This document shows positions 3,585 to 53,804 of a stretch of DNA of 64,000 nt, piece after piece; the stretch's first letter is position 1; each line of letters begins with the position of its first letter. The DNA is from Elusimicrobiota bacterium (lineage in GTDB: Bacteria; Elusimicrobiota; Elusimicrobia; F11), in the NCBI GenBank assembly GCA_044221725.1, contig JBGAON010000002.1:403000-466999 (forward strand), given 5' to 3'. Below the pieces are notes generated by a model, which was given only the letters and a program-made list of their open reading frames with translations, made no database searches and was not told the origin of the DNA. The position numbers and the translations under genes are program-made.

Positions 3585-4106
3585 ATCGCCAAACCGCCAT
3601 TAGCCAGGATTAACCACGCCATTCGCGTACCCCAAGTTAGACTTATCAATGAACGAGGAGAGATGGTCGGAGTAAAGACCATACAAGAAGCTTTAAAAAT
3701 GGCCGAAGACGCTGGCTATGATCTCATCGAAATCGCTCCAGCCGTAAGTCCACCTGTTTGCAAGCTTGGAAACTTTTCCAAGTTCCTTTACGAAAAAGAG
3801 AAAAAGTTAAAGGAAGCTCGCAAGAATCGTGGCGGCGGTCAGGTCAAAGAAATTCGGATTCGTCCGAAAATCGGCGAACACGACTTGATGGTGAAGATCA
3901 ATGCCATTACGAAGTTTTTGAAGGAACACCACAAGGTTCGCGTTAGTTTTGTTTTTATGGGCCGTGAAATGGAACACAGAGAGATCGGCCAGAAGATGCT
4001 CGAGAAGATTGAGCAGCAAGTCGATGGGGTTGGAGTTGTGGAACAACGGCCTCAGATGTACGGAAACAGAATGATCACGATTTTTGTGCCTCATTTGAAA
4101 GGATAA
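3585..4106 (+). CDS. infC: translation initiation factor IF-3 (non-AUG start)
   Basis: The open frame begins after a TAG at 3567-3569. Residues upstream of the first ATG (3663) read ARINHAIRVPQVRLINERGE and align with the E. coli IF-3 N-terminus. Likely start is ATC 3585 (after aggagga) or ATT 3609; the exact start is uncertain. Confidence 0.85.
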   Translation: MAKPPLARINHAIRVPQVRLINERGEMVGVKTIQEALKMAEDAGYDLIEIAPAVSPPVCKLGNFSKFLYEKEKKLKEARKNRGGGQVKEIRIRPKIGEHDLMVKINAITKFLKEHHKVRVSFVFMGREMEHREIGQKMLEKIEQQVDGVGVVEQRPQMYGNRMITIFVPHLKG

Positions 4107-4110
4107 GAAA

Positions 4111-4308
4111 ATGCCAAAACTGAAGTCACATAGCGGAAGCAAAAAACGTTTTAAGATCACAGCGCGCGGAAAAGTGATGCACAAGCGCGCCGGCGCTCGA
4201 CACTTGCTGCAAGGCATGTCGTCCAGCCGCAGCCGGCAGTTGCGTCGCCCCGATGCGTTGACGAACCAGCAAGCGCGCGTCATCAAAGCACTTTTACCCT
4301 ACGGATAG
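4111..4308 (+). CDS. rpmI: 50S ribosomal protein L35
   Basis: 65-aa basic protein MPKLKSHSGSKKRFK..., classic L35 N-terminus; sits between infC and rplT. Confidence 0.9.
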   Translation: MPKLKSHSGSKKRFKITARGKVMHKRAGARHLLQGMSSSRSRQLRRPDALTNQQARVIKALLPYG

Positions 4309-4414
4309 GAAAAGCGTCATCCTGGCAATCTTTTAGCCAGGATCCACTTAACTTAAGAATAAATGGACCCGGGATTGAGACATTCCGGGGGGACGAAATA
4401 AAAGGAAAAAAATT

Positions 4415-4780
4415 ATGAGAACAAGAAGCGTAACATACACCCGTCAACGAAAGAAAAAACATTACCGTCGCGCCAAAGGCGCCTACGCGACCAAAAAGAA
4501 TCGCTGGAGAATGGTAAAGCAACATCTGCGAAAAGTGGGTGTTTATTCGTACGTTGGACGCAAAGATCGTAAATCGGATTTCCGAAGCCTTTGGATTATG
4601 CGCATCAACGCCGCGGCCCGCGAGCTCGGTGGCTTAACATATTCGCAAATGATCAGTGGTCTCAAAGCCGCGAACATCGCCGTGGATCGCAAAATTCTTG
4701 CCGATCTCGCCGTGAACGACACGCAGTCGTTTAGCGACTTGGCCGCAATTGCCAAAGAAAACCAAAAAGCTGCCGCATAA
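4415..4780 (+). CDS. rplT: 50S ribosomal protein L20
   Basis: 121 aa; LWIMRINAAARE...IAVDRKILADLAV matches the L20 core. Confidence 0.9.
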   Translation: MRTRSVTYTRQRKKKHYRRAKGAYATKKNRWRMVKQHLRKVGVYSYVGRKDRKSDFRSLWIMRINAAARELGGLTYSQMISGLKAANIAVDRKILADLAVNDTQSFSDLAAIAKENQKAAA

Positions 4781-4798
4781 GGTTTCTCGTTTGGCCAC

Positions 4799-5860
4799 AT
4801 GGCCCAACCTTTGCCGGAGATAGACCTCCAATCGATTGAAAAAGACGCGCTCGATGCTCTCGAGCGCGTTTCTTCGTTGCCTGACGTTGATGCGTTGCAC
4901 GCCCGTTTCTTGGGCCGCAAAGATGGTCAATTGACGTCTGTTCTGCGCAATCTCGCAACACTTCCACCCGAAGAGAAAAAGCGCGTCGGTCAGGAAGCCA
5001 ACCGTATTCGCACCGTTCTCGAGGAAAAAATCTCGGCCAAGCAAAGTTCGTTGCGAGCGGCTGCGCTTTCCGCCAATCTCGAGAAAGAACAGGTCGATCT
5101 CACTTTGCCCGGTACGCCGGTGCAACGTGGACATTCGCATCCGATCCTCAAGACGATTCGAGAAATTACCAGCATCTTTAAAAACATCGGTTTCGATGTT
5201 GCCGAAGGTCCCGAACTTGAGAGCGATCAATTTAATTTTACCGATCTGAATATTCCCGAGAACCATCCGGCGCGCGACATGCACGACACGTTCTATCTGG
5301 ACGGGCAAAAACTTTTGTTGCGCACGCACACCTCTCCCGTCCAAATTCGTGTAATGAAAGAAACGAAGCCACCGATTCGTTTGATATCACCGGGCCGCGT
5401 GTTTCGTCACGAAGCCACCGACGCCACCCACGCTGCAATCTTTCACCAGGTTGAAGGACTGGTCGTCGCCGAAGGTGTGACTTTTGGAGACTTAAAAGGA
5501 TTGCTCACGTACTTTGCGGAGAAATATTTTGGCCCGGCGACCAAAGTTCGCTTTATGCCGAGCTACTTTCCGTTTGTTGAACCTGGTGCGCAAATGGACG
5601 TGCAATGTTTCATGTGTCACGGCTCCCGAAAGACCGGAAACGGACAGAATTGCCCGCTTTGCAAAGCGACCGGATGGATTGAAATGCTGGGCGCCGGAAT
5701 GGTGCATCCGCAGGTTTTGCGAAATGTCGGTTACGACGCTGAGAAGTATACAGGTCTCGCGTTTGGCATGGGCGTGGAGCGGATTATGATGACGCGTTCG
5801 GAAATTCGGGACATTCGGTACTTTCTGGAATCTGATTTGCGTTTCTTGGAGCAGTTTTAA
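4799..5860 (+). CDS. pheS: phenylalanyl-tRNA synthetase alpha subunit
   Basis: 353 aa; FPFVEPGAQMDV...GWIEMLGAGMVHPQVL...AFGMGVERI class II motifs. Stop overlaps the pheT start (TAATG). Confidence 0.95.
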   Translation: MAQPLPEIDLQSIEKDALDALERVSSLPDVDALHARFLGRKDGQLTSVLRNLATLPPEEKKRVGQEANRIRTVLEEKISAKQSSLRAAALSANLEKEQVDLTLPGTPVQRGHSHPILKTIREITSIFKNIGFDVAEGPELESDQFNFTDLNIPENHPARDMHDTFYLDGQKLLLRTHTSPVQIRVMKETKPPIRLISPGRVFRHEATDATHAAIFHQVEGLVVAEGVTFGDLKGLLTYFAEKYFGPATKVRFMPSYFPFVEPGAQMDVQCFMCHGSRKTGNGQNCPLCKATGWIEMLGAGMVHPQVLRNVGYDAEKYTGLAFGMGVERIMMTRSEIRDIRYFLESDLRFLEQF

Positions 5861-23093: not shown

Positions 23094-24407
23094 ATGAGTG
23101 ATTCGTTCTCGTTCTTGCCCAATCTTCCGCATTCGCCCGGCGTTTATCTTATGCGCGACAATACCGGTGGCATTATTTATATCGGCAAGGCGCGCGATTT
23201 AAAAAAACGAGTGAGCAATTATTTCGCAGCAGGACGTCCACACGATCACAAGACGCTCATTCTTGTATCCGAAGTTCGCCACGTCGATTACGTGCCAACC
23301 GCGAGCGAGCGCGAAGCATTTCTGCTGGAACAACGCTTGATCAAACGGCACAAGCCAATTTTTAACGTGATGTGGAAGGACGACAAGTCCTACCCGTATG
23401 TGGTGGTAACCACGCAAGAGGATTTCCCACGCGCCTATCTAACGCGCCGAAAAAAGAAAGATGGGGCTTCTTATTTCGGCCCCTACCCGAACGTCGGTCA
23501 AGTGCGGTCGCTGTTGCGATGGACGTGGCGAAAAAAGATTCTCGCCCTGCGACCATGCCGCTTCGAAATTAAAGAAGGGGAAGTGCTGCCTTACAAAAAA
23601 GTGAAATCGTGTCTTTATTTGCACACGAGTCAATGTTCGGCTCCTTGCATTGGAAAAATTTCGAGCAAGGAATACGGCAAGATCGTGGACCGCGCTCGTT
23701 GGTTTTTTGGAGGCGAAAAAGAAAAACTCGCGGCCGAGTGGGAAGTCGAAATGAAAAAGCTTTCCAGCGAAGATCGGTTTGAAGCCGCGGCCGCGTTGCG
23801 CGATCAAATCGAAACGCTTCGCCACATGAACGAACGCATCACGTACCGCGAAATGAGCGAAGATATGTTGGGGGAGCGCGTGCGCGAAAGTCGCGCCGTT
23901 CAAGATCTCATGAAAGCGTTGAACCTGAAAAAGCCACCGCAACGAATCGAATGTTTCGATATTTCTCACATCCAAGGGACGGAAAAAGTGGCCTCCATGG
24001 TGTCGTTCGATCACGGTCGACCCGACAAGTCACAGTACCGCAAATATATTATTCGCACTGTTGAAGGAATTGATGATTTTAAGGCAATGGCCGAGGTGGT
24101 TGGGCGCCGGTATCGTCGATTGAAAAACGAAAATAAACCGTTCCCGGATTTGGTGTTGATTGACGGAGGGAAGGGACAATTGTCGTCGGCTCTTGCCGCC
24201 ATCGCGGAACTAAAGATTTCAGGGCTCGCCGTCGCTGCGCTTGCAAAAGAAGAAGAGGAAATTTTTTTACCGGGTTCGAGCGAATCAATTCGCTTGCCGG
24301 ATTATTCGGCGGCGCTTCTTTTGTTGCGACACGTGCGTGATGAGGCGCATCGCTTCGCGATAACTTTCCATCGCCAGCGTCGTCAGAAAAGGACTTTTTT
24401 GGTGTAG
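23094..24407 (+). CDS. UvrC-family excinuclease lacking the C-terminal (HhH)2 domain
   Basis: 437 aa; GIY-YIG (GVYLMRDNTGGIIYIGKARDLKKRVSNYF), YFGPYP, Cys-rich block, UvrB-interacting region, RNase-H-like endonuclease domain (IECFDISHIQG...LIDGGKGQL...HVRDEAHRFAI). The protein ends about 12 residues after the nuclease domain. Confidence 0.8.
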   Translation: MSDSFSFLPNLPHSPGVYLMRDNTGGIIYIGKARDLKKRVSNYFAAGRPHDHKTLILVSEVRHVDYVPTASEREAFLLEQRLIKRHKPIFNVMWKDDKSYPYVVVTTQEDFPRAYLTRRKKKDGASYFGPYPNVGQVRSLLRWTWRKKILALRPCRFEIKEGEVLPYKKVKSCLYLHTSQCSAPCIGKISSKEYGKIVDRARWFFGGEKEKLAAEWEVEMKKLSSEDRFEAAAALRDQIETLRHMNERITYREMSEDMLGERVRESRAVQDLMKALNLKKPPQRIECFDISHIQGTEKVASMVSFDHGRPDKSQYRKYIIRTVEGIDDFKAMAEVVGRRYRRLKNENKPFPDLVLIDGGKGQLSSALAAIAELKISGLAVAALAKEEEEIFLPGSSESIRLPDYSAALLLLRHVRDEAHRFAITFHRQRRQKRTFLV

Positions 24408-24418
24408 AATCTTTCGCG

Positions 24419-24721
24419 ATGATCCCTAACGCTATTCGTACGAAGATGAAGCAGTACCCCGCGTTTCAACAAAAGGTTTGGACCGCCTGCGCCGAAATTC
24501 CTTCCGGACAAATCCGCACCTATCGATGGATCGCCGAGAAAATTGGAAGCCCGAAAGCCGCGCGCGCGGTGGGTTCGGCTCTTGGTAAAAATCCCTTTGC
24601 TCCCATTATTCCTTGTCATCGCGTTTTGCGATCCGACGGTGGAATGGGCGGTTATTCCGGTGATGGTGGAATAACGAAAAAGATTCAGTTGCTCAAGAGA
24701 GAAGGCGCGCTTCGAAAGTAA
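24419..24721 (+). CDS. ogt: stand-alone methylated-DNA-protein-cysteine methyltransferase C-terminal domain (active-site Cys retained)
   Basis: 100 aa; PSGQIRTYRWIAEKIG, ARAVGSALGKNP, PCHRV motifs as in the Ogt/Ada C-domain; starts 12 nt after the uvrC-like gene. Confidence 0.8.
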   Translation: MIPNAIRTKMKQYPAFQQKVWTACAEIPSGQIRTYRWIAEKIGSPKAARAVGSALGKNPFAPIIPCHRVLRSDGGMGGYSGDGGITKKIQLLKREGALRK

Positions 24722-25171: not shown

Positions 25172-25618
25172 ATGGTACGTGGTCGAACCTTATACGCATT
25201 GATTTTCATCACTGTCGTTTCTTTCGTTTTCAGTGGTTGCGCGGCTATTCCGATTTCATTGGCAATGCAGGGCGCGGCGGACGCCGGAATGGAATTGGCA
25301 AGCCGGGATTCTCGTTCTTTTACCCACACGAAAGCACAGGTAAAAGCCGCCACGCTGGAAGCTCTGGAGCGCATGCAAATTTCCGTGGCTCGGCAGACTG
25401 AAAAAAAAGAAAGTGAAAAAATAATCGGAAAGACAAAGAAGCTAAGCATTACCATCATACTCGCAGCAATTACACCGAAGTTGACAAAGGTCTCGGTCCG
25501 CGCAAAAAGAAATTGGTTTTCAAGGGACGAAACCGTTTCAGCCGAAATATTGGTTCAGATCAATCGAATTCTGCGCCGCGAATTTGATCCTTCTCCCCGC
25601 ACTCCAGCTGGAGCTTGA
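25172..25618 (+). CDS. hypothetical lipoprotein
   Basis: 148 aa; signal peptide with lipobox FSGC; no recognizable catalytic motif. Confidence 0.4.
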   Translation: MVRGRTLYALIFITVVSFVFSGCAAIPISLAMQGAADAGMELASRDSRSFTHTKAQVKAATLEALERMQISVARQTEKKESEKIIGKTKKLSITIILAAITPKLTKVSVRAKRNWFSRDETVSAEILVQINRILRREFDPSPRTPAGA

Positions 25619-26765: not shown

Positions 26766-26908
26766 GCCGAAGGTTCACCTTTTTCATTCGTTCCATTGTA
26801 GCGATCCAGATTCAGATGGAAAAGGCCGCGCATCTCGTCGCGTGCCCGGCAAATGGGACGTCTTCGGTCCTACAGGCACTCTTTGTCCAACAACGCACGA
26901 TAAGAGGA

Positions 26909-26980
26909 CTCCCCGAGCTAGACTCGAACTAGCAACCCTCCCGTTAACAGCGGGATGCTCCACCATTGAGCTATCGGGGA
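26909..26980 (-). tRNA. tRNA-Asn (anticodon GTT)
   Basis: Minus-strand 72-nt cloverleaf: acceptor tccccga/tcgggga, D-arm gctc-aatggtg-gagc, anticodon stem tcccg/cggga with loop ctGTTaa, T-arm gctag-ttcgagt-ctagc, discriminator G. No encoded CCA. Confidence 0.8.
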
Positions 26981-27146
26981 AAGAGGTGGGACTTGGAAAC
27001 TGTTTTGCAGCGCGCGGATTGTAACACAACGACGTCATTCCGACAAATTCGCGACGGATCCGATCGAAATGGGGAGTGTGAAATAAAACCGCTCAGTAAA
27101 TCTCGATGGTTTGGTTCCGGAATGGAATAAAGAAGGTTTTCGCTAT

Positions 27147-27217: not shown

Positions 27218-28687
27218 ATGAATTCGAAAACAGCGAATGGTATCCACACCTGCGTGTCAACCGGTAACCCAGGGCTCGATGAAGTTCTTTCCGGAGGTTT
27301 CACTCCGAACCGTCTTTATTTGATTGAAGGAGATCCCGGCTCCGGAAAAACAACCCTCGGCTTACAGTATTTGCTGGAAGGCGTTAAGAATGGGGAAACC
27401 GTCATGTATGTGACGCTTTCCGAAACAACCGAAGAATTGGCGGCGGTCGCCGCCTCTCACGGTTGGTCGCTTGACGGAATCCACGTGGTTGAACTTGTGC
27501 CGTCTGAGCGCGCGTTAGAAAGCGATGCGCAATATACGATGTTTCATCCTTCCGAAGTGGAATTGAACGAAACAACAAAGGCCGTGTTGGACAAGGTCGA
27601 GGAACACAAACCAACCCGAATCGTTTTTGATTCGCTTTCAGAAATGCGGTTGCTCGCGCAAAATCAATTGCGGTATCGGCGCCAAATCCTTGCGTTGAAA
27701 CAGTTTTTTGTTGGACGAAATTGCACGGTTGTGTTGTTGGATGACCGCACGGCCGAACAATCCGATATACAGCTCCAAAGTATCGCGCACGGTGTTTTAA
27801 CGCTCGAGCAATTATCTCCGAACTATGGCGCCGAACGTCGCCGACTGCGCGTCATGAAGTTTCGCGGAAAGAGATACCGCGGCGGATACCATGACTTCGT
27901 CATTCGGCAGGGGGGAATTGATATTTTCCCGAGGTTGATAGCGGCGGAGCATCACAGCGCGTTTTCGCAACAGCTTCTTTTGAGCGGCAATGCCGGGTTG
28001 GATGCGCTTATGGGCGGTGGAATCAATCCGGGAACAAGCACGCTGTTAATCGGACCCGCCGGTGCGGGCAAATCTTCTCTTGGTATGCAATATGTGGTTG
28101 CGGCGGCGAACCGAGGACAGAAGTCTTGCGTATTTATCTTTGATGAGAGCATCAACACGTATTTAACGCGAAGCGCCGGCCTTGGAATGGATTTGGCTCC
28201 ATATATTGAAAACAAGCAAGTGACTCTCCAACAGGTTGATCCGGCCGAATTGTCGCCGGGAGAATTCGCCGGAGCCGTCCGTGCCGCGGTCGCCAAACAC
28301 GGTCCTCGCGTGATTGTTATTGACAGTCTCAATGGATATTTAAACTCTATGCCCGAAGAAGACTTTCTCACCGTGCAAATGCACGAGCTGCTGACGTATC
28401 TTGGCCAGATCGGAGTCAACACATTCCTTGTGGTGGCCCAAGCAGGCTTGATTGGTGCGATGTCCGCACCTATTGATGTGAGTTATCTCGCTGATAACGT
28501 GATTCTCTTCCGATATTTCGAGTCAAAAGGGGCCATCCGTCAGGCCATTTCGGTGATTAAAAAACGCTCGGGTAACCACGAGCGAACGATTCGCGAGCTC
28601 AGTATGAGCGGTGCCGGTATTAAAATTGGTGAACCTCTTTTACGGTTTTCAGGAATTCTGCAGGGGACGCCAACATTCGATGAATAG
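27218..28687 (+). CDS. kaiC: KaiC-family double RecA-like ATPase
   Basis: 489 aa with two RecA-like halves: Walker [10 protein letters not shown] and GPAGAGKSS, acidic pair in SETTEEL (CI catalytic EE position), Walker B-like hydrophobic-D/E blocks in each half. Confidence 0.85.
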
Positions 28688-29870
28688 CCTTTTCGAAAGA
28701 ATCTTGATTCTCGCCCCAACGGGTAAGGATGCGATGCTCAGCCAGCGAATTCTTACCGAAGCGGGCCTAAAGGCAGAACCTGTACCGGATATGGAGCAAT
28801 TGTGCCGAAAAATTGAAGAGGGAGCAGGCGCCGTTATTCTCACAGAGGAATCTGTGGAGGAAGACCGCGCGAGAAGGTTGCGGGCCACGTTACAGAAAGA
28901 ACAGTCGTGGTCGGATATTCCGATTCTTGTGATTACGAAGGGCGGGGCCGATTCACCAGTGGCCGCCCATGCATTGGAAAAACTGGGGGATGTGATTTTG
29001 CTGGAGCGACCCGTGCGGATCGGCACATTGGTGAGTGCGTGCCGGGCATCTCTTCGAACTCGGAATCGGCAATTGGCCTTGCAAAAAAAAGAGGCGGAGT
29101 TGGTCGAGAAGACCGATCGGCTTATTCAGTCGAATCTCGAGTTGGAACAATTTGCGTATGTTAGTTCGCATGATCTTCAGGAGCCGTTGCGAAAAATTTC
29201 GTTGATGACGGATTTAATGGCGATCCAATGCAGCGATAAGCTTGATGACAATGGACGTCGTCAGCTTCAAGGCATCGCGGATGGTTCCCGTCGAATGGGC
29301 CAATTAATAAAGGATTTGCTTGATTATGCGCGACTGACAAAATCGGATTCCTCAGCCGAAGAGACGGATTTGAACGCGGTGCTGAAGCAAGTATTATCGG
29401 ATCTCGAGATCCGGATAAATGAGAAACAGGCGCGTGTGAGCTTCGACACGTTGCCCACGGTTACCGCGGAAAAGGCACGTTTGCATCATGTGTTTCTCAA
29501 TCTTATTAGTAACGCACTGAAATTTTCTCGAAGCGAACCACCGGAAATCCATGTGACGTCGCACGAGGAAAATGGATTTGTCCGCATTTCGATCTCGGAC
29601 AACGGGATTGGAATTGATCCGTTGTTTTCCGCGAAAATTTTTCAGGTTTTTCAGCGGCTTCACAGTCGGCACAAATATCCGGGGACGGGCATTGGACTCG
29701 CAATCTGTAAGAAGGTTGTCGAACATCACGGCGGAAAGATATGGGTTGAGTCCAAACTCGGCGAAGGATCAACGTTTCACTTTACGCTTCCCGTCATCCC
29801 CTCTGGAAATCCGGGCAATCAAAACCCTCTCGTGAATTCCGAACGCGCGGCTTTCGCGACCGCAAATTAG
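28680..29870 (+). CDS. histidine kinase with N-terminal pseudo-receiver domain
   Basis: ATG lies within the last codons of kaiC. N-terminal receiver-like fold lacks the acidic pocket and phospho-acceptor Asp ([18 protein letters not shown]). Then H-box [10 protein letters not shown]-box [12 protein letters not shown]-boxes DNGIGID and GTGIGL. Confidence 0.8.
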
Positions 29871-31606
29871 TCGCTTTCGCTGGAATGAAGGAGTCCTTTG
29901 TAGATTCCGATGAGATTGCTTTTGGTGACGATTCCGATAATTTTTTTATTGGCGTCCACCACCACAATTCGATCAACGTCATGGACGTTCATCAGACGTA
30001 CGGCTTCCGTAAGAGATCTGTGCGGGTCCACCGTCGGTGCGGATCGGCGCATAACGTCGCGAGCCGTACGTTCATCGGTTTTTGATCCCGCCCCAAATGT
30101 TTTTTTGAGCTCGGCGTACGTCAGAAGTCCCACCAGCTCGCCGTTCTCTTCAACGACCGGATAACCTGTGTGCGAATGATGAGAGATAAAGTCGGACACG
30201 GCCCCCAACGTCATTGTGGCCGGAATCGTTATCACTCGGCGCGTCATTACTTGCTCCACGTGGTATTTCTCGAGCGCTCGTAGTTCGGCGATTTCGTGGG
30301 TGCGCACCCCTTTCTTCAGTAACTTGCGGGTGTCGATGCTCTCTGGATCCAATGTTCGCGCGAAAGCGGTGGTGACACCGACGGCAAACATTAAAGGCAA
30401 CACGAGATTGTAATCGCCGGTTAGTTCAAACATCAAAATTATGGCCGTGAACGGTGCAAAGGTTATTCCGGCAAACATCGCGCCCATTCCGACGATCATG
30501 TAGGCGCCCGCAGGGGCGGCCGCTGGAAAGACGAAATGCACGGCGCGGCCCACGCCGCCGCCGACCATAGCGCCCATTAACAGAAATGGAATAAAAATTC
30601 CGCCCGAGCCACCGGATCCAATCGTCACGGCGCAGGCAACAATCTTTGCCAGCAGCAGGATCAACATTGCGTTCGACGTCCACGGCTGAACAAATTCGGC
30701 GTCCAGCACACGCGGAATAACATCGTGGCCGTTTCCCATGACGTCCGGCACCCCAAGTGCGAGCAGCCCAATAATGGCGCCTCCGGTCATTGTTTTTATG
30801 TACGGTGGAACTTTCCAGTCAGCGAATGCGTGGTCGACCGCGAAGTATGTTTGGACAAAAAATTTGGCCACAATGGCGGCAAGAATTGCGAGAGCGGCGT
30901 AGAAAACAAGCTCGACGGGATGATTGAACGCGAAACTCGGAGGCACCCGCACAAATTCGCGATTCCCAAGCAAAAGGTGGGTTGATATGGAGGCCGTAAC
31001 GGTCGAGAGGATCACCATCACAAATGTTTCCGATGCGAATTCGCGGAGCAGCACCTCGATTGCAAATAACACACCGGCGATGGGCGCGTTGAAAACCGCC
31101 GCGAAACCCGCTGCAGCGCCGGCAATGGCCAGATTCTTCACTTGTTCGGCCGATAGTTTTCGTGCACCGGCCAAATAAGACCCGATTCCCGCACCAATGG
31201 AGACCACGGGTGCTTCCGGGCCGGCCGCCGCGCCGGAGCACGTGGTAAAAATACTGGCTATTGTTTTAATCACCGTGTAACGGGGTGAAATTTTTCCATC
31301 TTTTCGCCGCAACGCGTACATAAGATCGGCGGTGCCTGTGCCCTTTGCGTTCGGATCCCATAACAATGCGAGACCCGCGAGTAAACCGCCAATCGTCGGA
31401 ATTAAAAAAATCAACAAGCGGCCCACCGCGATACCCAAAAAGCGGGATTCTCCGGGGTGCGATGGCCAAAACTCTACCGTTTCAATCAGTCGAATGAACG
31501 CCCATGCAGAAACGCTTGTGCCGAGGCCAACCAGCAGCGCGAGTGCGAAAAGCAACTTGGTTTCCGTAAAACGGACGAGGCGAAGCAGTTTGCTCCAAGC
31601 AATCAT
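29867..31606 (-). CDS. ClC-family chloride channel / H+-Cl- antiporter with C-terminal CBS pair
   Basis: 579 aa; [11 protein letters not shown] and GxFxP-type selectivity motifs, polytopic, two C-terminal CBS-like repeats. Confidence 0.9.
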
Positions 31607-37619: not shown

Positions 37620-38408
37620 TTATTTGTTCCAGCACAACACGCGGTTTCGGCCAGCGTGTTTTGCAGCGTACAATGCTTCGTCGGCTGCGTTAAAAAGATC
37701 TTCTCTGGTTCTTAGCTGGTCCGCGGGATAGTTCACAAGCCCTATGCTGACGGTGACCGTCACGCGTTTTCCGGCCAACTCAAAACAGTCTTTTTCGATC
37801 ATCTTTCGAATTCGTTCGGCAATGGCGAGCGCTTTCTCCTGATTTGTGTGCGGCAAGATCACCATGAACTCCTCGCCGCCAAGCCGGCCCACCGTATCAA
37901 CATGCCGCAAGCTTTTTTTGAGAATGTTCGAGATTCGTTTCAAAACCGTATCGCCAAACGGGTGACCGTATTTGTCGTTGATTTTTTTGAAGTGATCGAT
38001 ATCAATCAACAAACACGTCAGCGGCGAGCGGTACGAATTTTCCAATTCCAGTTCCAGTCGCTCGTGCGTGGCGCGCGCGTTTAAAAGCCCGGTGAGTCCA
38101 TCGCTGTCGGCCCGCTGCGAGAGCTCAAAATTATCGTCTCGAGCCGCTCGGGAATTCATTTCGAGGTCATCGTGGTGTTGACCGATAAGATAACCCAAGA
38201 GCGCGAACAAGCACGCGCTAGAGATGCCCATAAACAAATAAAAACTGTCCATGCGGTGAAGCTCGGTTTTCAACCACATGTGCCACCAGGCCGAGCGCGC
38301 GGAATAGGCGCGCCAAACGATCCAGTGCAGCGGGATTTCGAATCCCAGAAAAACGCCTGCGACAGCGTAGATAATGCGATTGCCCACGGTGGGTCCGGTT
38401 TCGGACAT
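37620..38408 (-). CDS. membrane-anchored diguanylate cyclase (GGDEF)
   Basis: 262 aa; two N-terminal TM helices; LTGLLNARA, DIDHFKKINDKYGHPFGD, RLGGEEF (intact GGEEF), SIGLV blocks. Confidence 0.85.
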   Translation of the reverse strand: MSETGPTVGNRIIYAVAGVFLGFEIPLHWIVWRAYSARSAWWHMWLKTELHRMDSFYLFMGISSACLFALLGYLIGQHHDDLEMNSRAARDDNFELSQRADSDGLTGLLNARATHERLELELENSYRSPLTCLLIDIDHFKKINDKYGHPFGDTVLKRISNILKKSLRHVDTVGRLGGEEFMVILPHTNQEKALAIAERIRKMIEKDCFELAGKRVTVTVSIGLVNYPADQLRTREDLFNAADEALYAAKHAGRNRVLCWNK

Positions 38409-48662: not shown

Positions 48663-49001
48663 ATGACGAGACCTGAAAAAAGAAAACAACAGCGGCTGGG
48701 TGCCAATCTTTTCGCCGAACTACTGGACGTCGCATCCGGCCAAGCTCGGGGTCGAGCGGTCGTGGTCGACGTCAGCCTCGGTGGCGTTGCGCTCGAATCG
48801 GAATCCGAATTTTCGCCTGGCGATCTTGTCGAATGCATGATTGAAGTGCCGCTGGTATTCCAAGCGAAAGTGGTGCGTTTCGAAATGAAAGGACAAATTC
48901 GGCGTTACGGTTTGAAATTTGTTAGCCAAAGCATTTTCGATAAATTGTTACTTAAGAAGGTATTAAAGGGCCCTCGTCGGACGCGCAAAGTCTCGCTATG
49001 A
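48663..49001 (+). CDS. PilZ-domain protein (putative c-di-GMP receptor)
   Basis: 112 aa; RKQQR (RxxxR) and DVSLGG (D-x-S-x-x-G) c-di-GMP-binding motifs in the expected order. Confidence 0.6.
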   Translation: MTRPEKRKQQRLGANLFAELLDVASGQARGRAVVVDVSLGGVALESESEFSPGDLVECMIEVPLVFQAKVVRFEMKGQIRRYGLKFVSQSIFDKLLLKKVLKGPRRTRKVSL

Positions 49002-52244: not shown

Positions 52245-53288
52245 ATGCGCATTCTTGTTATTCAGCTGAAAGCGATCGGCGATGTTATTTGCACGACCCC
52301 CATTCCCGCCTACTTAAAGAAAGTTTTTCCCGATGCCGAAGTCGATTTTCTTGTCGGTCAAGTTTCGGCGCCGGTCGTTGAGACGAGTCCCTTTGTTGCA
52401 AACACGCTTGTGTATGACGCCTCAAAGCCGCTGCGCGAAATTTCCCGAATTCGGTCGCGGCGCTACGATGTGGTGATTGATTATTTAACGAACCCGCGCA
52501 CGCGCGTGTTAACCCTCGCTAGCGGCGCGCGATGGAAAATTGCGTTTGATCGCGGCCTTTCGCGGTCGTTCTATTACAATTTCCGCGCTCCGGTGCCGTC
52601 GGAACCGGAGTATGTGCCGGTTCGGAAGCTGCGACTTATTGACGAGTGGTTTGCCAAAATTAAAGTGCCCTCCAAAAAGCCGGAATTTGTGCGACCCAAA
52701 GTTTTTCTTAACGCGGAAGACGAGGCCTTTGCTGAGGAGTGGATTGCAAACGAAGGACTGAACGGAATTCCGTTCGCGATTGTTATGCCGATTCACAAAC
52801 ATCCGATTTGTCGCTGGCAACCCGAGGGGTTTCGTCAGGTTGCGACCGATCTCGTTCAAAAGTTGAAATTGCGCGTTTATTTTGGGTGGGGGCCGGGGGA
52901 GGAACAGGCGTTACGAAAAGTCCACCAAGGGCTCGAGAATCTCGTCGGGCTTTGTCCGCCGGTGTCCTTACGAAAGAATGCCGCTATTCTAAAACGGGCG
53001 ACCTTTCTGCTCGCGAACAATTCGGGATCGATTCATCTGGCTGTATCGGTTGGGACACCCACCGTGGCTATTTTCGGCCCGACCCGAGCTATCGATTGGA
53101 GTCCAGCGTTGTCGCCGATTGCCGATAACGGTTCCGATATCGCGCTACAAGCGGAAGGTCTCGAGTGTCTGGGGTGTCGTCTCAAAGAATGTCCGATCGG
53201 ACACCTGTGCATGAAGGACTTGTCGGCCGACACCGTGCTCGCGGCGTGCAACCGAATGGTCTCGGATACCAGATCAGCGAGACGATAG
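52245..53288 (+). CDS. glycosyltransferase family 9 (LPS heptosyltransferase-like)
   Basis: 347 aa; MRILVIQLKAIGDVI N-terminus and C-terminal NNSGSIHLAVSVGTPTVAIFGPT block typical of GT9 heptosyltransferases. Confidence 0.8.
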   Translation: MRILVIQLKAIGDVICTTPIPAYLKKVFPDAEVDFLVGQVSAPVVETSPFVANTLVYDASKPLREISRIRSRRYDVVIDYLTNPRTRVLTLASGARWKIAFDRGLSRSFYYNFRAPVPSEPEYVPVRKLRLIDEWFAKIKVPSKKPEFVRPKVFLNAEDEAFAEEWIANEGLNGIPFAIVMPIHKHPICRWQPEGFRQVATDLVQKLKLRVYFGWGPGEEQALRKVHQGLENLVGLCPPVSLRKNAAILKRATFLLANNSGSIHLAVSVGTPTVAIFGPTRAIDWSPALSPIADNGSDIALQAEGLECLGCRLKECPIGHLCMKDLSADTVLAACNRMVSDTRSARR

Positions 53289-53804
53289 TTCGGACACGTG
53301 CGCGCGAGCTCGAGTTATCATGGCTTGAGCAGAGTTGCCGTCACGCGGATAGATTGCCCATCCGATGCGCGCAAAAAGCAGTCCGGGATTATTCGGCCAC
53401 AAGAACTGCTGCAAGATATCCGTCCAGCGTGACGTTAGATCGTTGTAGTGGCCCGCACGAATCACATTCTGTGTGAGCGAAACAAGTCGTCTTGCGATTG
53501 TGTCGACTTTTCCGGGATCGACAGCATCAAACACAAGTCCCAGGCCATCCTGAAAGAACCCGACGTATTGACTTGGATGAACGGCCATACGAACCGCCTG
53601 AAAAACTTCTCTTAGAAATCCATTTACTACATGCGGCGGCCGTTTTTTCCGGAACTCAGCCATATTTTCAATTTTTAACATCACAATAAAAAACGGACGG
53701 TTGGTTTCGTTTGACTTTTTCATCGTCAGCTGAATTTGGTTCGCGAACTCGCTGCTTGTAATTTGTGCGGCCGATGCCTGCTGAACCTGCGTTTTGTTGT
53801 CCAT
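53274..53804 (-). CDS. hypothetical protein with degenerate GGDEF-like (nucleotidyl-cyclase fold) pattern
   Basis: 176 aa; block order resembles a GGDEF domain (FFIVMLKIENMAEF ... FFQDGLGLVF ... ARIGWAIYP) but the GG(D/E)EF site reads QDGLGL. Assignment is tentative. Confidence 0.35.
   Translation of the reverse strand: MDNKTQVQQASAAQITSSEFANQIQLTMKKSNETNRPFFIVMLKIENMAEFRKKRPPHVVNGFLREVFQAVRMAVHPSQYVGFFQDGLGLVFDAVDPGKVDTIARRLVSLTQNVIRAGHYNDLTSRWTDILQQFLWPNNPGLLFARIGWAIYPRDGNSAQAMITRARAHVSELSSR

Follow-up and report, generated by a model that had tools for sequence, protein, structure and literature searches.

A KaiC homologue and an overlapping pseudo-receiver histidine kinase in an Elusimicrobiota bacterium: a probable minimal case of a widespread KaiA/KaiB-independent module

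We analyzed a 64,000-nucleotide stretch of the genome of an Elusimicrobiota bacterium (contig JBGAON010000002.1, positions 403,000 to 466,999; hereafter the window), in which a kaiC-like gene (27218..28687) is directly followed by an overlapping histidine kinase gene (28680..29870; window coordinates are on the + strand unless marked otherwise). We read this locus, with a probability of roughly 60%, as a two-gene operon of the widespread KaiA/KaiB-independent "KaiC (S-Y type) plus Nt-kinase" module, with the N-terminal pseudo-receiver of the kinase reading KaiC in a stress or hourglass role. The pair is a further, minimal example of a known and common module and not a new system, and its interpretation had been foreshadowed in 2011, a partial test following in Pseudomonas in 2022. 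It bears on the question of how non-cyanobacterial KaiC homologues transmit their state without KaiA, KaiB, SasA, and CikA, and it represents the minimal case of the commonest KaiB-less arrangement, with overlapping genes, no extra sensor, and no fused receiver.

The first gene, whose ATG is preceded by AGGTGA, encodes a protein of 489 amino acids with two RecA-like domains, CI and CII. The Pfam model PF06745 ("KaiC") matches the product in two stretches (E 3.5e-67), and residues 13–486 align with the solved KaiC chains 8zn5, 8db3, and 1u9i. The best solved relative, 8zn5_B, aligns end-to-end (E 6.9e-47), and Rhodobacter and Synechococcus KaiC chains match at E 1e-38 to 1e-35. Two Walker A motifs were read from the sequence: GDPGSGKT in CI (residues 38–45, 27329..27352), whose G, K, and T are invariant in 64–65 of the 67 KaiC family members compared, and GPAGAGKS in CII (residues 279–286, 28052..28075), which is conserved across the family. 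The Walker B aspartates are D138 (CI) and D369 (CII), and the Walker A and Walker B motifs of both domains are conserved in the 67 relatives. The preliminary description of this DNA, made from the letters alone, had already recognized a double RecA-like KaiC homologue with two Walker A motifs, and the two PF06745 matches and the end-to-end alignment bear it out. Its "CI acidic pair", in turn, has to be corrected: in the alignments to 8zn5 and 8db3, the equivalent of the cyanobacterial CI catalytic pair E77-E78 is S68-E69 ("LSET", 27419..27424), and the EE at residues 72–73 is not homologous to it. The first CI Glu is thus replaced by S68 (27419–27421). This position is consistently Ser or Ala in the related KaiC proteins (S 52/67, A 13/67) and the second Glu is kept (position 69, E in 65/67), which suggests that the CI ATPase of this subfamily may differ from that of the cyanobacterial clock protein. 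In CII, D309-E310 (28142..28147) aligns with the acidic pair E318-E319 (position 309, D in 46/67 and E in 18/67; position 310, E in 66/67), and S422-Y423 (28481..28486) with the phosphosite S431-T432, which makes the phosphosite one of the "SY" type (position 422, S in 56/67 and T in 7/67; position 423, Y in 62/67).

The start codon of the kinase (ATG, 28680) falls within the final codons of kaiC, in a different frame, and the kaiC stop codon TAG occupies 28685–28687, so that the start of one gene and the end of the other share 8 nucleotides (ATGAATAG, 28680..28687). The closest homologue (P0002, 65% identical) backs this choice of start: it begins at the equivalent position, and in its contig (L001) it likewise overlaps kaiC by 8 nt. 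Such an overlap would imply that the translation of kaiC and the kinase gene is coupled. Among the 64 related loci with a complete kaiC open reading frame (ORF), the median distance from the kaiC stop to the first beta-strand encoded by the following gene is 23 nt; a start codon is available for a 4-nt overlap in 23 loci and for an 8-nt overlap in 6. Because the kaiC stop abuts or overlaps the next start across these loci, translational coupling is probably a trait of the family. The unit is bounded upstream by a gene for tRNA-Asn (GTT) on the opposite strand (26906..26981, − strand; ARAGORN, and Rfam tRNA with 66 bits), which is divergent from kaiC at a distance of 236 nt, and downstream by a convergent gene for a ClC channel with two CBS domains (29867..31606, − strand; Pfam Voltage_CLC E 6e-87, and CBS). 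In the 64-kb window, tblastn with S. elongatus KaiA and KaiB queries gave chance hits only (E above 2), and neither protein was found among the small ORFs. No window ORF matched a small receiver hidden Markov model (HMM), which was built from 6 sequences and with which canonical receivers should have been detectable. Since the pair is flanked by tRNA-Asn and the convergent ClC gene, and no KaiA, KaiB, or receiver was found in the 64 kb, kaiC and the kinase gene form a self-contained two-gene operon. The overlapping start codon, the absence of KaiA and KaiB from the window, the lack of an adjacent cognate response regulator, and the ClC channel converging on the kinase 3' end had all been noted in the preliminary description, and each of these points stands.

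The kinase has 396 amino acids and lacks transmembrane segments as well as any sensor domain besides the N-terminal one. Its AlphaFold2 model (pLDDT 89) and Pfam matches divide it into a pseudo-receiver (residues 1–113, 28680..29018), a dimerization and histidine phosphotransfer (DHp) domain matched by HisKA (residues 155–220, E 2e-11), and an HATPase_c catalytic domain (residues 265–372, 29472..29795, E 4.6e-30). The key residues of HATPase_c are N274, N278, D307, G309, G311, G335, G337, and G339. H164 and the N, G1, F (F321), and G2 boxes are complete, as the preliminary description had it, and these columns are invariant in the alignment A1. With all box residues kept, the protein is predicted to be a catalytically competent kinase of the HisKA type. 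According to DSSP on the model, residues 114–183 (29019..29228) form a single continuous helix comprising alpha5, an Arg-rich linker, and DHp helix 1, so that the receiver helix alpha5 runs unbroken into the helix bearing H164 (29169–29171). The linker contains R126, R128, R130, and Q131, and position 135, which is Arg in 73/75 family members, is Q in the window kinase. The NCBIfam SasA model NF006800 matches only residues 129–374, with 155 bits against a cut-off of 342.

The N-terminal domain models confidently as a (beta-alpha)5 CheY-like receiver fold and not as a thioredoxin fold, and BLASTP gave no alignment between it and a KaiB sequence. Its key positions, as compared with those of receivers, are A12-P13, D17, E56-E57, W77-S78-D79-x-P81, T86, and E109-R110-P111. 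A12-P13 stands at the position of the acidic pair, E56 (in "TEES") at that of the phospho-acceptor Asp, and R110 at that of the Lys; only the Thr of the catalytic quintet is kept (T86). The isolated domain falls under the PF00072 gathering threshold (16.1 versus 30.2 bits), and Pfam has no model for it. The degenerate receiver proposed earlier is confirmed by this alignment, which was also a check for a canonical receiver with a phospho-acceptor Asp and found E56 instead. The rebuilt face is conserved: P13 is found in 69/75 family members, D17 in 73/75, E56 in 72/75, E57 in 75/75, and T86 in 57/75. R110 is at least 90% conserved in the alignments A1 and A2 (the latter of 16 sequences), as is P111 in the independent set; both alignments were collected independently of the pattern scan described below and were used for residues 102–111 because the scan pattern, [LP]G[ND][VA][IVT]LLERP, biases the conservation of A4 there. 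The conserved residues form three clusters, of which the first occupies the former active-site face (A12-P13-T14, D17, E56-E57, T86, G89-A-D-S92, and E109-R110-P111), the second the alpha3-beta4 loop (Q74-P-x-W77-S78-D79-x-P81), and the third the alpha5 extension (R126, R128, R130, Q131, Y132, and R135). Because a decaying relic would not retain an invariant E-E and an R at this site, the pattern argues for a new conserved function at the former phosphorylation pocket.

To place the pair among related loci, we relied on homology searches with the kinase and on a genome scan. The former returned a family of kinases of 370–420 amino acids that are alike over their whole length, most of which share the N-domain consensus RxLxLAPxGxDA ... 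GAGA..L.EE.L ... QPxWSDxP ... GNVxLLERPxR..TLVS..R.ALR.R.RQY, and a more distant group with the same core and a canonical receiver. The latter, run with an N-domain pattern derived from the 6 closest sequences on one genome per species, gave confirmed pattern matches in at least 561 species-representative genomes from the Planctomycetota, Acidobacteriota, Proteobacteria, Myxococcota, Bdellovibrionota, Gemmatimonadota, Deinococcota, and other phyla. KaiC adjacency was counted in the best 80 of these at least 561 loci, which represent many phyla: in 76 of them, a co-oriented KaiC gene 50–66% identical to that of the window immediately precedes the gene with the N-domain, and KaiB was not found within 6 kb in any of the 80. 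The pairing goes beyond chance because it recurs in 76/80 unrelated genomes. Two kinases that combine the window-type core with a canonical receiver (P0073 and P0089, the only two checked for KaiC linkage) sit in ordinary phosphorelay clusters without KaiC, and a protein with an Asp at position 56 and an APFGRDG motif (P0045) adjoins KaiC. On these sequences, KaiC linkage appears to track the pseudo-receiver and not the kinase core. In the closest genome-derived relative, from a Gemmatales metagenome-assembled genome (L004, 3696–4718), the N-domain is 57% identical and the protein stops shortly past the H-box, without HATPase_c, which suggests a frameshift, a pseudogene, or an assembly error.

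The same N-domain is found before different outputs. Among the 75 proteins carrying it whose domains were tallied, 71 have HisKA plus HATPase_c, 65 in addition a C-terminal canonical receiver (the typical hybrid kinase of about 500 amino acids), 12 PAS, and 2 GAF. HisKA_3 occurs in 2/75 (L050 and L071), GGDEF-EAL in 1/75 (L009, Trueperaceae), and a SpoIIE/PP2C phosphatase in 1/75 (L067, Armatimonadales). The pseudo-receiver fusions L009 (6001–7725), L067 (1966–3177), L050 (6001–7614), and L071 (6001–7200) all lie directly downstream of a KaiC gene. The domain also sits on different kinase cores, since the H-box of the window kinase is of the phytochrome type and most other domain carriers have EFLAxLAHELRNPL. 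Such fusion of the N-domain and its Arg-rich linker to varied outputs is how an input module would be expected to behave. When 1.84 billion cluster representatives were searched with a domain profile, it matched 5,776 of them at E<=0.001, 4,115 at 1e-10, and 1,808 at 1e-30, nearly always at the N-terminus of proteins of 140–1,631 amino acids. Canonical receivers vastly outnumber these matches, and the family is therefore discrete. It extends to plasmids and chromids (155 records; Agrobacterium 40, Sphingobium 18, Sinorhizobium 13, Azospirillum 11, and others), where the proteins are annotated as "ATP-binding protein", "response regulator", or "hybrid sensor histidine kinase" and the KaiC neighbor is labeled "gvpD: ATPase domain-containing protein". 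On a Caballeronia plasmid (NZ_CP071131.1; L084, 3485–5002), for instance, RefSeq names the KaiC-like gene "gvpD". The RefSeq names "gvpD", "response regulator", and "ATP-binding protein" conceal the KaiC link.

The arrangement corresponds to one described by De Luca et al. in 2011 as a "second kaiC context", in which Ramlibacter tataouinensis carries KaiC (Rta_04330) and a kinase termed "Nt_HK" (Rta_04340) as co-transcribed genes in a genome without kaiB (PMC3164672). The N-terminal module of that kinase, RtaNt, is 19% identical to a receiver domain, and the authors proposed a family of KaiC-interacting kinases and a rudimentary hourglass (PMC3164672). The window shares with this context the SY-type phosphosite (SY, TY, or SF in the groups of PMC3164672), a kinase directly after kaiC (co-transcribed in Ramlibacter, overlapping here), an N-terminal module that is conserved and weakly receiver-like in both kinases, the absence of kaiB there and its not being found in the window, and the proposal, made in both cases, that this module docks on KaiC. 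It also differs. Rta_04340, encoded by 1.5 kb, and the typical family member are hybrid kinases of about 500 amino acids with a C-terminal receiver (65/75), whereas the window kinase has 396 amino acids, no C-terminal receiver, and a HisKA of the phytochrome type; and De Luca et al. compared their module with SasA-N and KaiB, whereas the window domain models as a receiver fold and not as a thioredoxin-like one. Our family set includes three Comamonadaceae, the family to which Ramlibacter belongs (Polaromonas L066 and L070, and Variovorax H12).

Experimental support for such a pairing comes from Pseudomonas (Terrettaz et al., bioRxiv 10.1101/2022.01.26.477890). Group I KaiC proteins there have an SY or TY phosphosite, two-hybrid and pull-down assays show that KaiC and its cognate kinase bind each other, residues 1–138 of the P. 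putida kinase (PP_3835), called PAS, suffice for this binding, kaiC mutants have stress phenotypes, KaiC phosphorylation tracks culture age and not circadian cues, and KaiB is absent from 1,255 Pseudomonas genomes (10.1101/2022.01.26.477890). The group I locus of P. protegens CHA0 is likewise of the SY/TY type and without KaiB, its kaiC shares an operon with a histidine kinase gene, and its role lies in stress physiology and not in circadian control. Differences are that Pseudomonas loci often include a single-domain response regulator, which the window does not, and that Terrettaz et al. do not describe a pseudo-receiver, the word "receiver" being absent from their paper. The window seems, on its sequence, to fit every testable feature of the De Luca and Pseudomonas group I descriptions. 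A comparable KaiB-less kaiC, followed by a regulator gene, is kaiC2-kaiR2 of Methylorubrum extorquens AM1, where a single conserved Ser of KaiC2 (S426) is phosphorylated and the phenotypes relate to UV and heat stress and to plant colonization (PMC8069551); likened by its description, it is probably the same kind of module. A replicon of Methylobacterium aquaticum carries the N-domain (H25).

In the kinase pathways of the cyanobacterial clock, too, the KaiC hexamer controls a kinase through a non-catalytic N- or C-terminal adaptor, and KaiA binds KaiC through the C-terminal domain of KaiA. In the window, KaiA and KaiB were not found and KaiC lacks the A-loop tail; SasA relies on a KaiB-like thioredoxin fold, in contrast to the receiver fold of the window domain, and the pseudo-receiver of CikA is C-terminal, in contrast to the N-terminal one of the window. 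SasA and CikA are thus functional analogues only. The analogy with the pseudo-receivers of KaiA and CikA drawn in the preliminary description is apt insofar as CikA carries such a domain and otherwise loose, since that of CikA binds KaiB and not KaiC (PMC12632262). Its central proposal, a KaiC-kinase module coupled through the pseudo-receiver, gains from the adjacency in 76/80 loci whatever the output and from the unlinked canonical-receiver kinases, and loses its novelty to the 2011 and 2022 papers. What goes beyond these earlier descriptions is that the window member has no C-terminal receiver, that the module has a receiver fold and not a KaiB- or SasA-like one, and that it also precedes non-kinase outputs. 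The hypothesis to be tested thereby becomes sharper, the coupling element being a receiver-fold pseudo-receiver with a conserved, remodeled active-site face, and particular residues are singled out for mutation.

We propose that the module works as follows. Given that the P-loop and the Walker B aspartate are kept in each domain, as are the D-E pair of CII and S422-Y423, the KaiC-like protein would be expected to be a double-ring hexameric ATPase and autokinase, and it could serve as a slow state variable that depends on nucleotide or phosphorylation. The overlapping start codon would lead to both proteins being made together. With A-P in place of D-D, E56 in place of the Asp, and R110 in place of the Lys, the pseudo-receiver should be unable to be phosphorylated, and it would be the module through which the kinase reads KaiC. 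As alpha5 is continuous with the DHp helix bearing H164, binding or release of KaiC could switch the kinase between autokinase and phosphatase states, control reaching H164 autophosphorylation through the continuous alpha5-DHp helix, and the output would pass to an unlinked response regulator. Contact through the pseudo-receiver, this direction of control, and a role in sensing stress or duration ("hourglass") are the most likely assignments, and direct docking of the window pseudo-receiver on KaiC is what we infer from the sequences.

Several points weigh against this reading. With a Ser at the CI E77 equivalent, the CI ATPase may behave differently from the cyanobacterial model. The assignment to the groups of Rta_04340 and P. 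protegens rests on shared features and not on direct sequence comparison; a search from a Polaromonas family member did not reach Rta_04340, only Polaromonas being among the 120 matches listed. In the P. putida kinase, which belongs to group III, the N-terminal domain that interacts with KaiC is called PAS and may differ from the window domain. The absence of KaiB applies to the 64-kb window alone. In 4 of the 80 best loci, the N-domain occurs without KaiC in the fetched 12 kb (L008, L023, L035, and L065); possibly these are orphans served by a KaiC encoded elsewhere. In two of them, L035 and L065, which are Myxococcota-like PAS kinases, the upstream gene lies on the opposite strand. Finally, mirror-tree correlations with KaiC were 0.48 for the pseudo-receiver and 0.44 for the kinase core and thus single out neither; the partial correlations (0.33 versus 0.26) do not discriminate between them and were not used as evidence.

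A further-reaching possibility, which we put forward tentatively, is that the N-domain is a portable "KaiC-reader" adaptor whose pocket (E56-E57, T86, R110, P13, and D17) has been rebuilt to sense the state of KaiC directly and which drives several outputs. The pocket would then recognize the nucleotide or phospho-Ser/Tyr state of a KaiB-less KaiC hexamer, and the Arg-rich alpha5 extension would relay this state to a histidine kinase, a GGDEF-EAL protein, or a PP2C phosphatase. If this were true, ATPases of the KaiC type would serve many bacterial phyla as general-purpose slow timers or sensors of energy, and a single domain would wire them into two-component, cyclic-di-GMP, and Ser/Thr-phosphatase signaling. 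The reuse of a family of about 4,000–5,800 sequence clusters before kinases, cyclic-di-GMP enzymes, and a PP2C phosphatase would justify a domain definition, which would also correct the annotations "response regulator", "ATP-binding protein", and "gvpD".

The pseudo-receiver could instead be mainly an intramolecular regulatory or dimerization domain, with KaiC acting through the DHp and catalytic core or through another partner, or with the kinase acting on KaiC. Pseudo-receivers of CikA and ShkA do inhibit autophosphorylation within their own protein (PMC12632262), the continuity of alpha5 with DHp supports an intramolecular role, and the mirror-tree signal for the kinase core is as strong as that for the pseudo-receiver. 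We consider this reading unlikely. The KaiC adjacency persists where the output has no DHp domain (GGDEF-EAL in L009, SpoIIE in L067) or one of another type (HisKA_3 in L050 and L071), and kinases of the same core with a canonical receiver lack the KaiC linkage.

Membership in the KaiC family, the two P-loops, and the two-residue phosphosite would also suit a genuine time-keeper, that is, a KaiB-less hourglass or circadian oscillator in which KaiC phosphorylation gates the kinase at about 24 h, and an hourglass had already been suggested for the second kaiC context (PMC3164672). The features that distinguish circadian KaiC speak against it. The alignment of the window KaiC ends 3 residues before the stop codon, about 24–28 tail residues being missing, and for this reason the C-terminal A-loop and tail of cyanobacterial KaiC, which are the KaiA-binding part, are absent as judged from the alignment. 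The protein scores far below the cut-offs of the NCBIfam circadian-KaiC equivalogs NF006799 (236 versus 408 bits) and TIGR02655 (135 versus 546 bits). The S431-T432 phosphosite, the CI pair E77-E78, and the A-loop tail of circadian KaiC are thus all changed or missing, Tyr standing for T432 and Ser for E77. Moreover, neither KaiA nor KaiB was found in the window, or beside the 80 related loci, and phosphorylation of the Pseudomonas protein is tied to culture age and not to circadian cues (10.1101/2022.01.26.477890). Such a time-keeper is hence quite improbable, and the "timing" function suggested in the preliminary description is, in a circadian sense, unsupported.

Two other readings fare worse. 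The N-domain would be a working receiver, phosphorylated by another kinase in an ordinary phosphorelay and only incidentally next to kaiC, if it resembled Leptospira LvrB, the best full-length structural match of the kinase (8vc9, Foldseek E 2e-21), in function as it does in fold, in its receiver (REC)-DHp-catalytic (CA) architecture, and in length, and T86 is indeed retained. The LvrB receiver is phosphorylatable, 8vc9 being the form with phosphorylated REC, whereas the window kinase is KaiC-linked and retains neither the Asp and the Lys nor the acidic pair. Glu replaces the Asp in 72/75 family members, A-P the metal-binding acidic pair, and Arg the Lys; the Pfam Response_reg score is below the cut-off; the N-domain profile does not draw in the large superfamily of canonical receivers; and KaiC adjacency in 76 of the 80 best loci speaks against an incidental neighbor. 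We therefore give this reading very little credence. Still less can be said for a RadA/Sms-type or other DNA-repair ATPase of the RecA superfamily in place of a KaiC-type signaling protein, an identity that the preliminary description had set as a check and that we rejected, since the matches to RecA, RadA, DnaB, and Rad51 models are weak, partial, and over the P-loop regions (the RadA match covers only residues 13–144, with 70 bits against a cut-off of 403), whereas the protein aligns with KaiC structures over its full length as two domains, has neither zinc finger nor Lon domain, and is kept in an operon with signaling proteins. An anti-phage defense function was rejected as well, PADLOC having given partial P-loop matches only.

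Around the operon, promoter and terminator scans found sites no more numerous than in shuffled sequence. The stop codons of the kinase gene (TAG, 29868–29870) and the ClC channel gene (TAA, 29867–29869, − strand) overlap, and the genes are separated by neither a spacer nor a terminator-like site. The ClC gene is not a conserved neighbor in related loci and probably lies outside the KaiC-kinase module. A DUF3568 lipoprotein-like gene is located near the pair in the window (25172–25618) and directly downstream of it in the closest related contig (L001, 9126–9590, − strand), whose kinase is 65% identical; it could be left over from earlier synteny or be functionally linked to the pair. Elsewhere, the window contains three cyclic-di-GMP signaling genes: one for a GGDEF protein (37620–38408, − strand; E 5.5e-48), one for a protein with a PilZ domain (48663–49001), and a 176-amino-acid ORF (53274–53804, − strand) whose GGDEF match is weak and sub-threshold. 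A second tRNA gene (1–62) is truncated by the left end of the window. UvrC usually has about 600 amino acids; a UvrC-like ORF in the window (23094–24407) has only 437, and 11 nt after it lies a 100-amino-acid ORF (24419–24721) that, by sequence, resembles a methylated-DNA methyltransferase.

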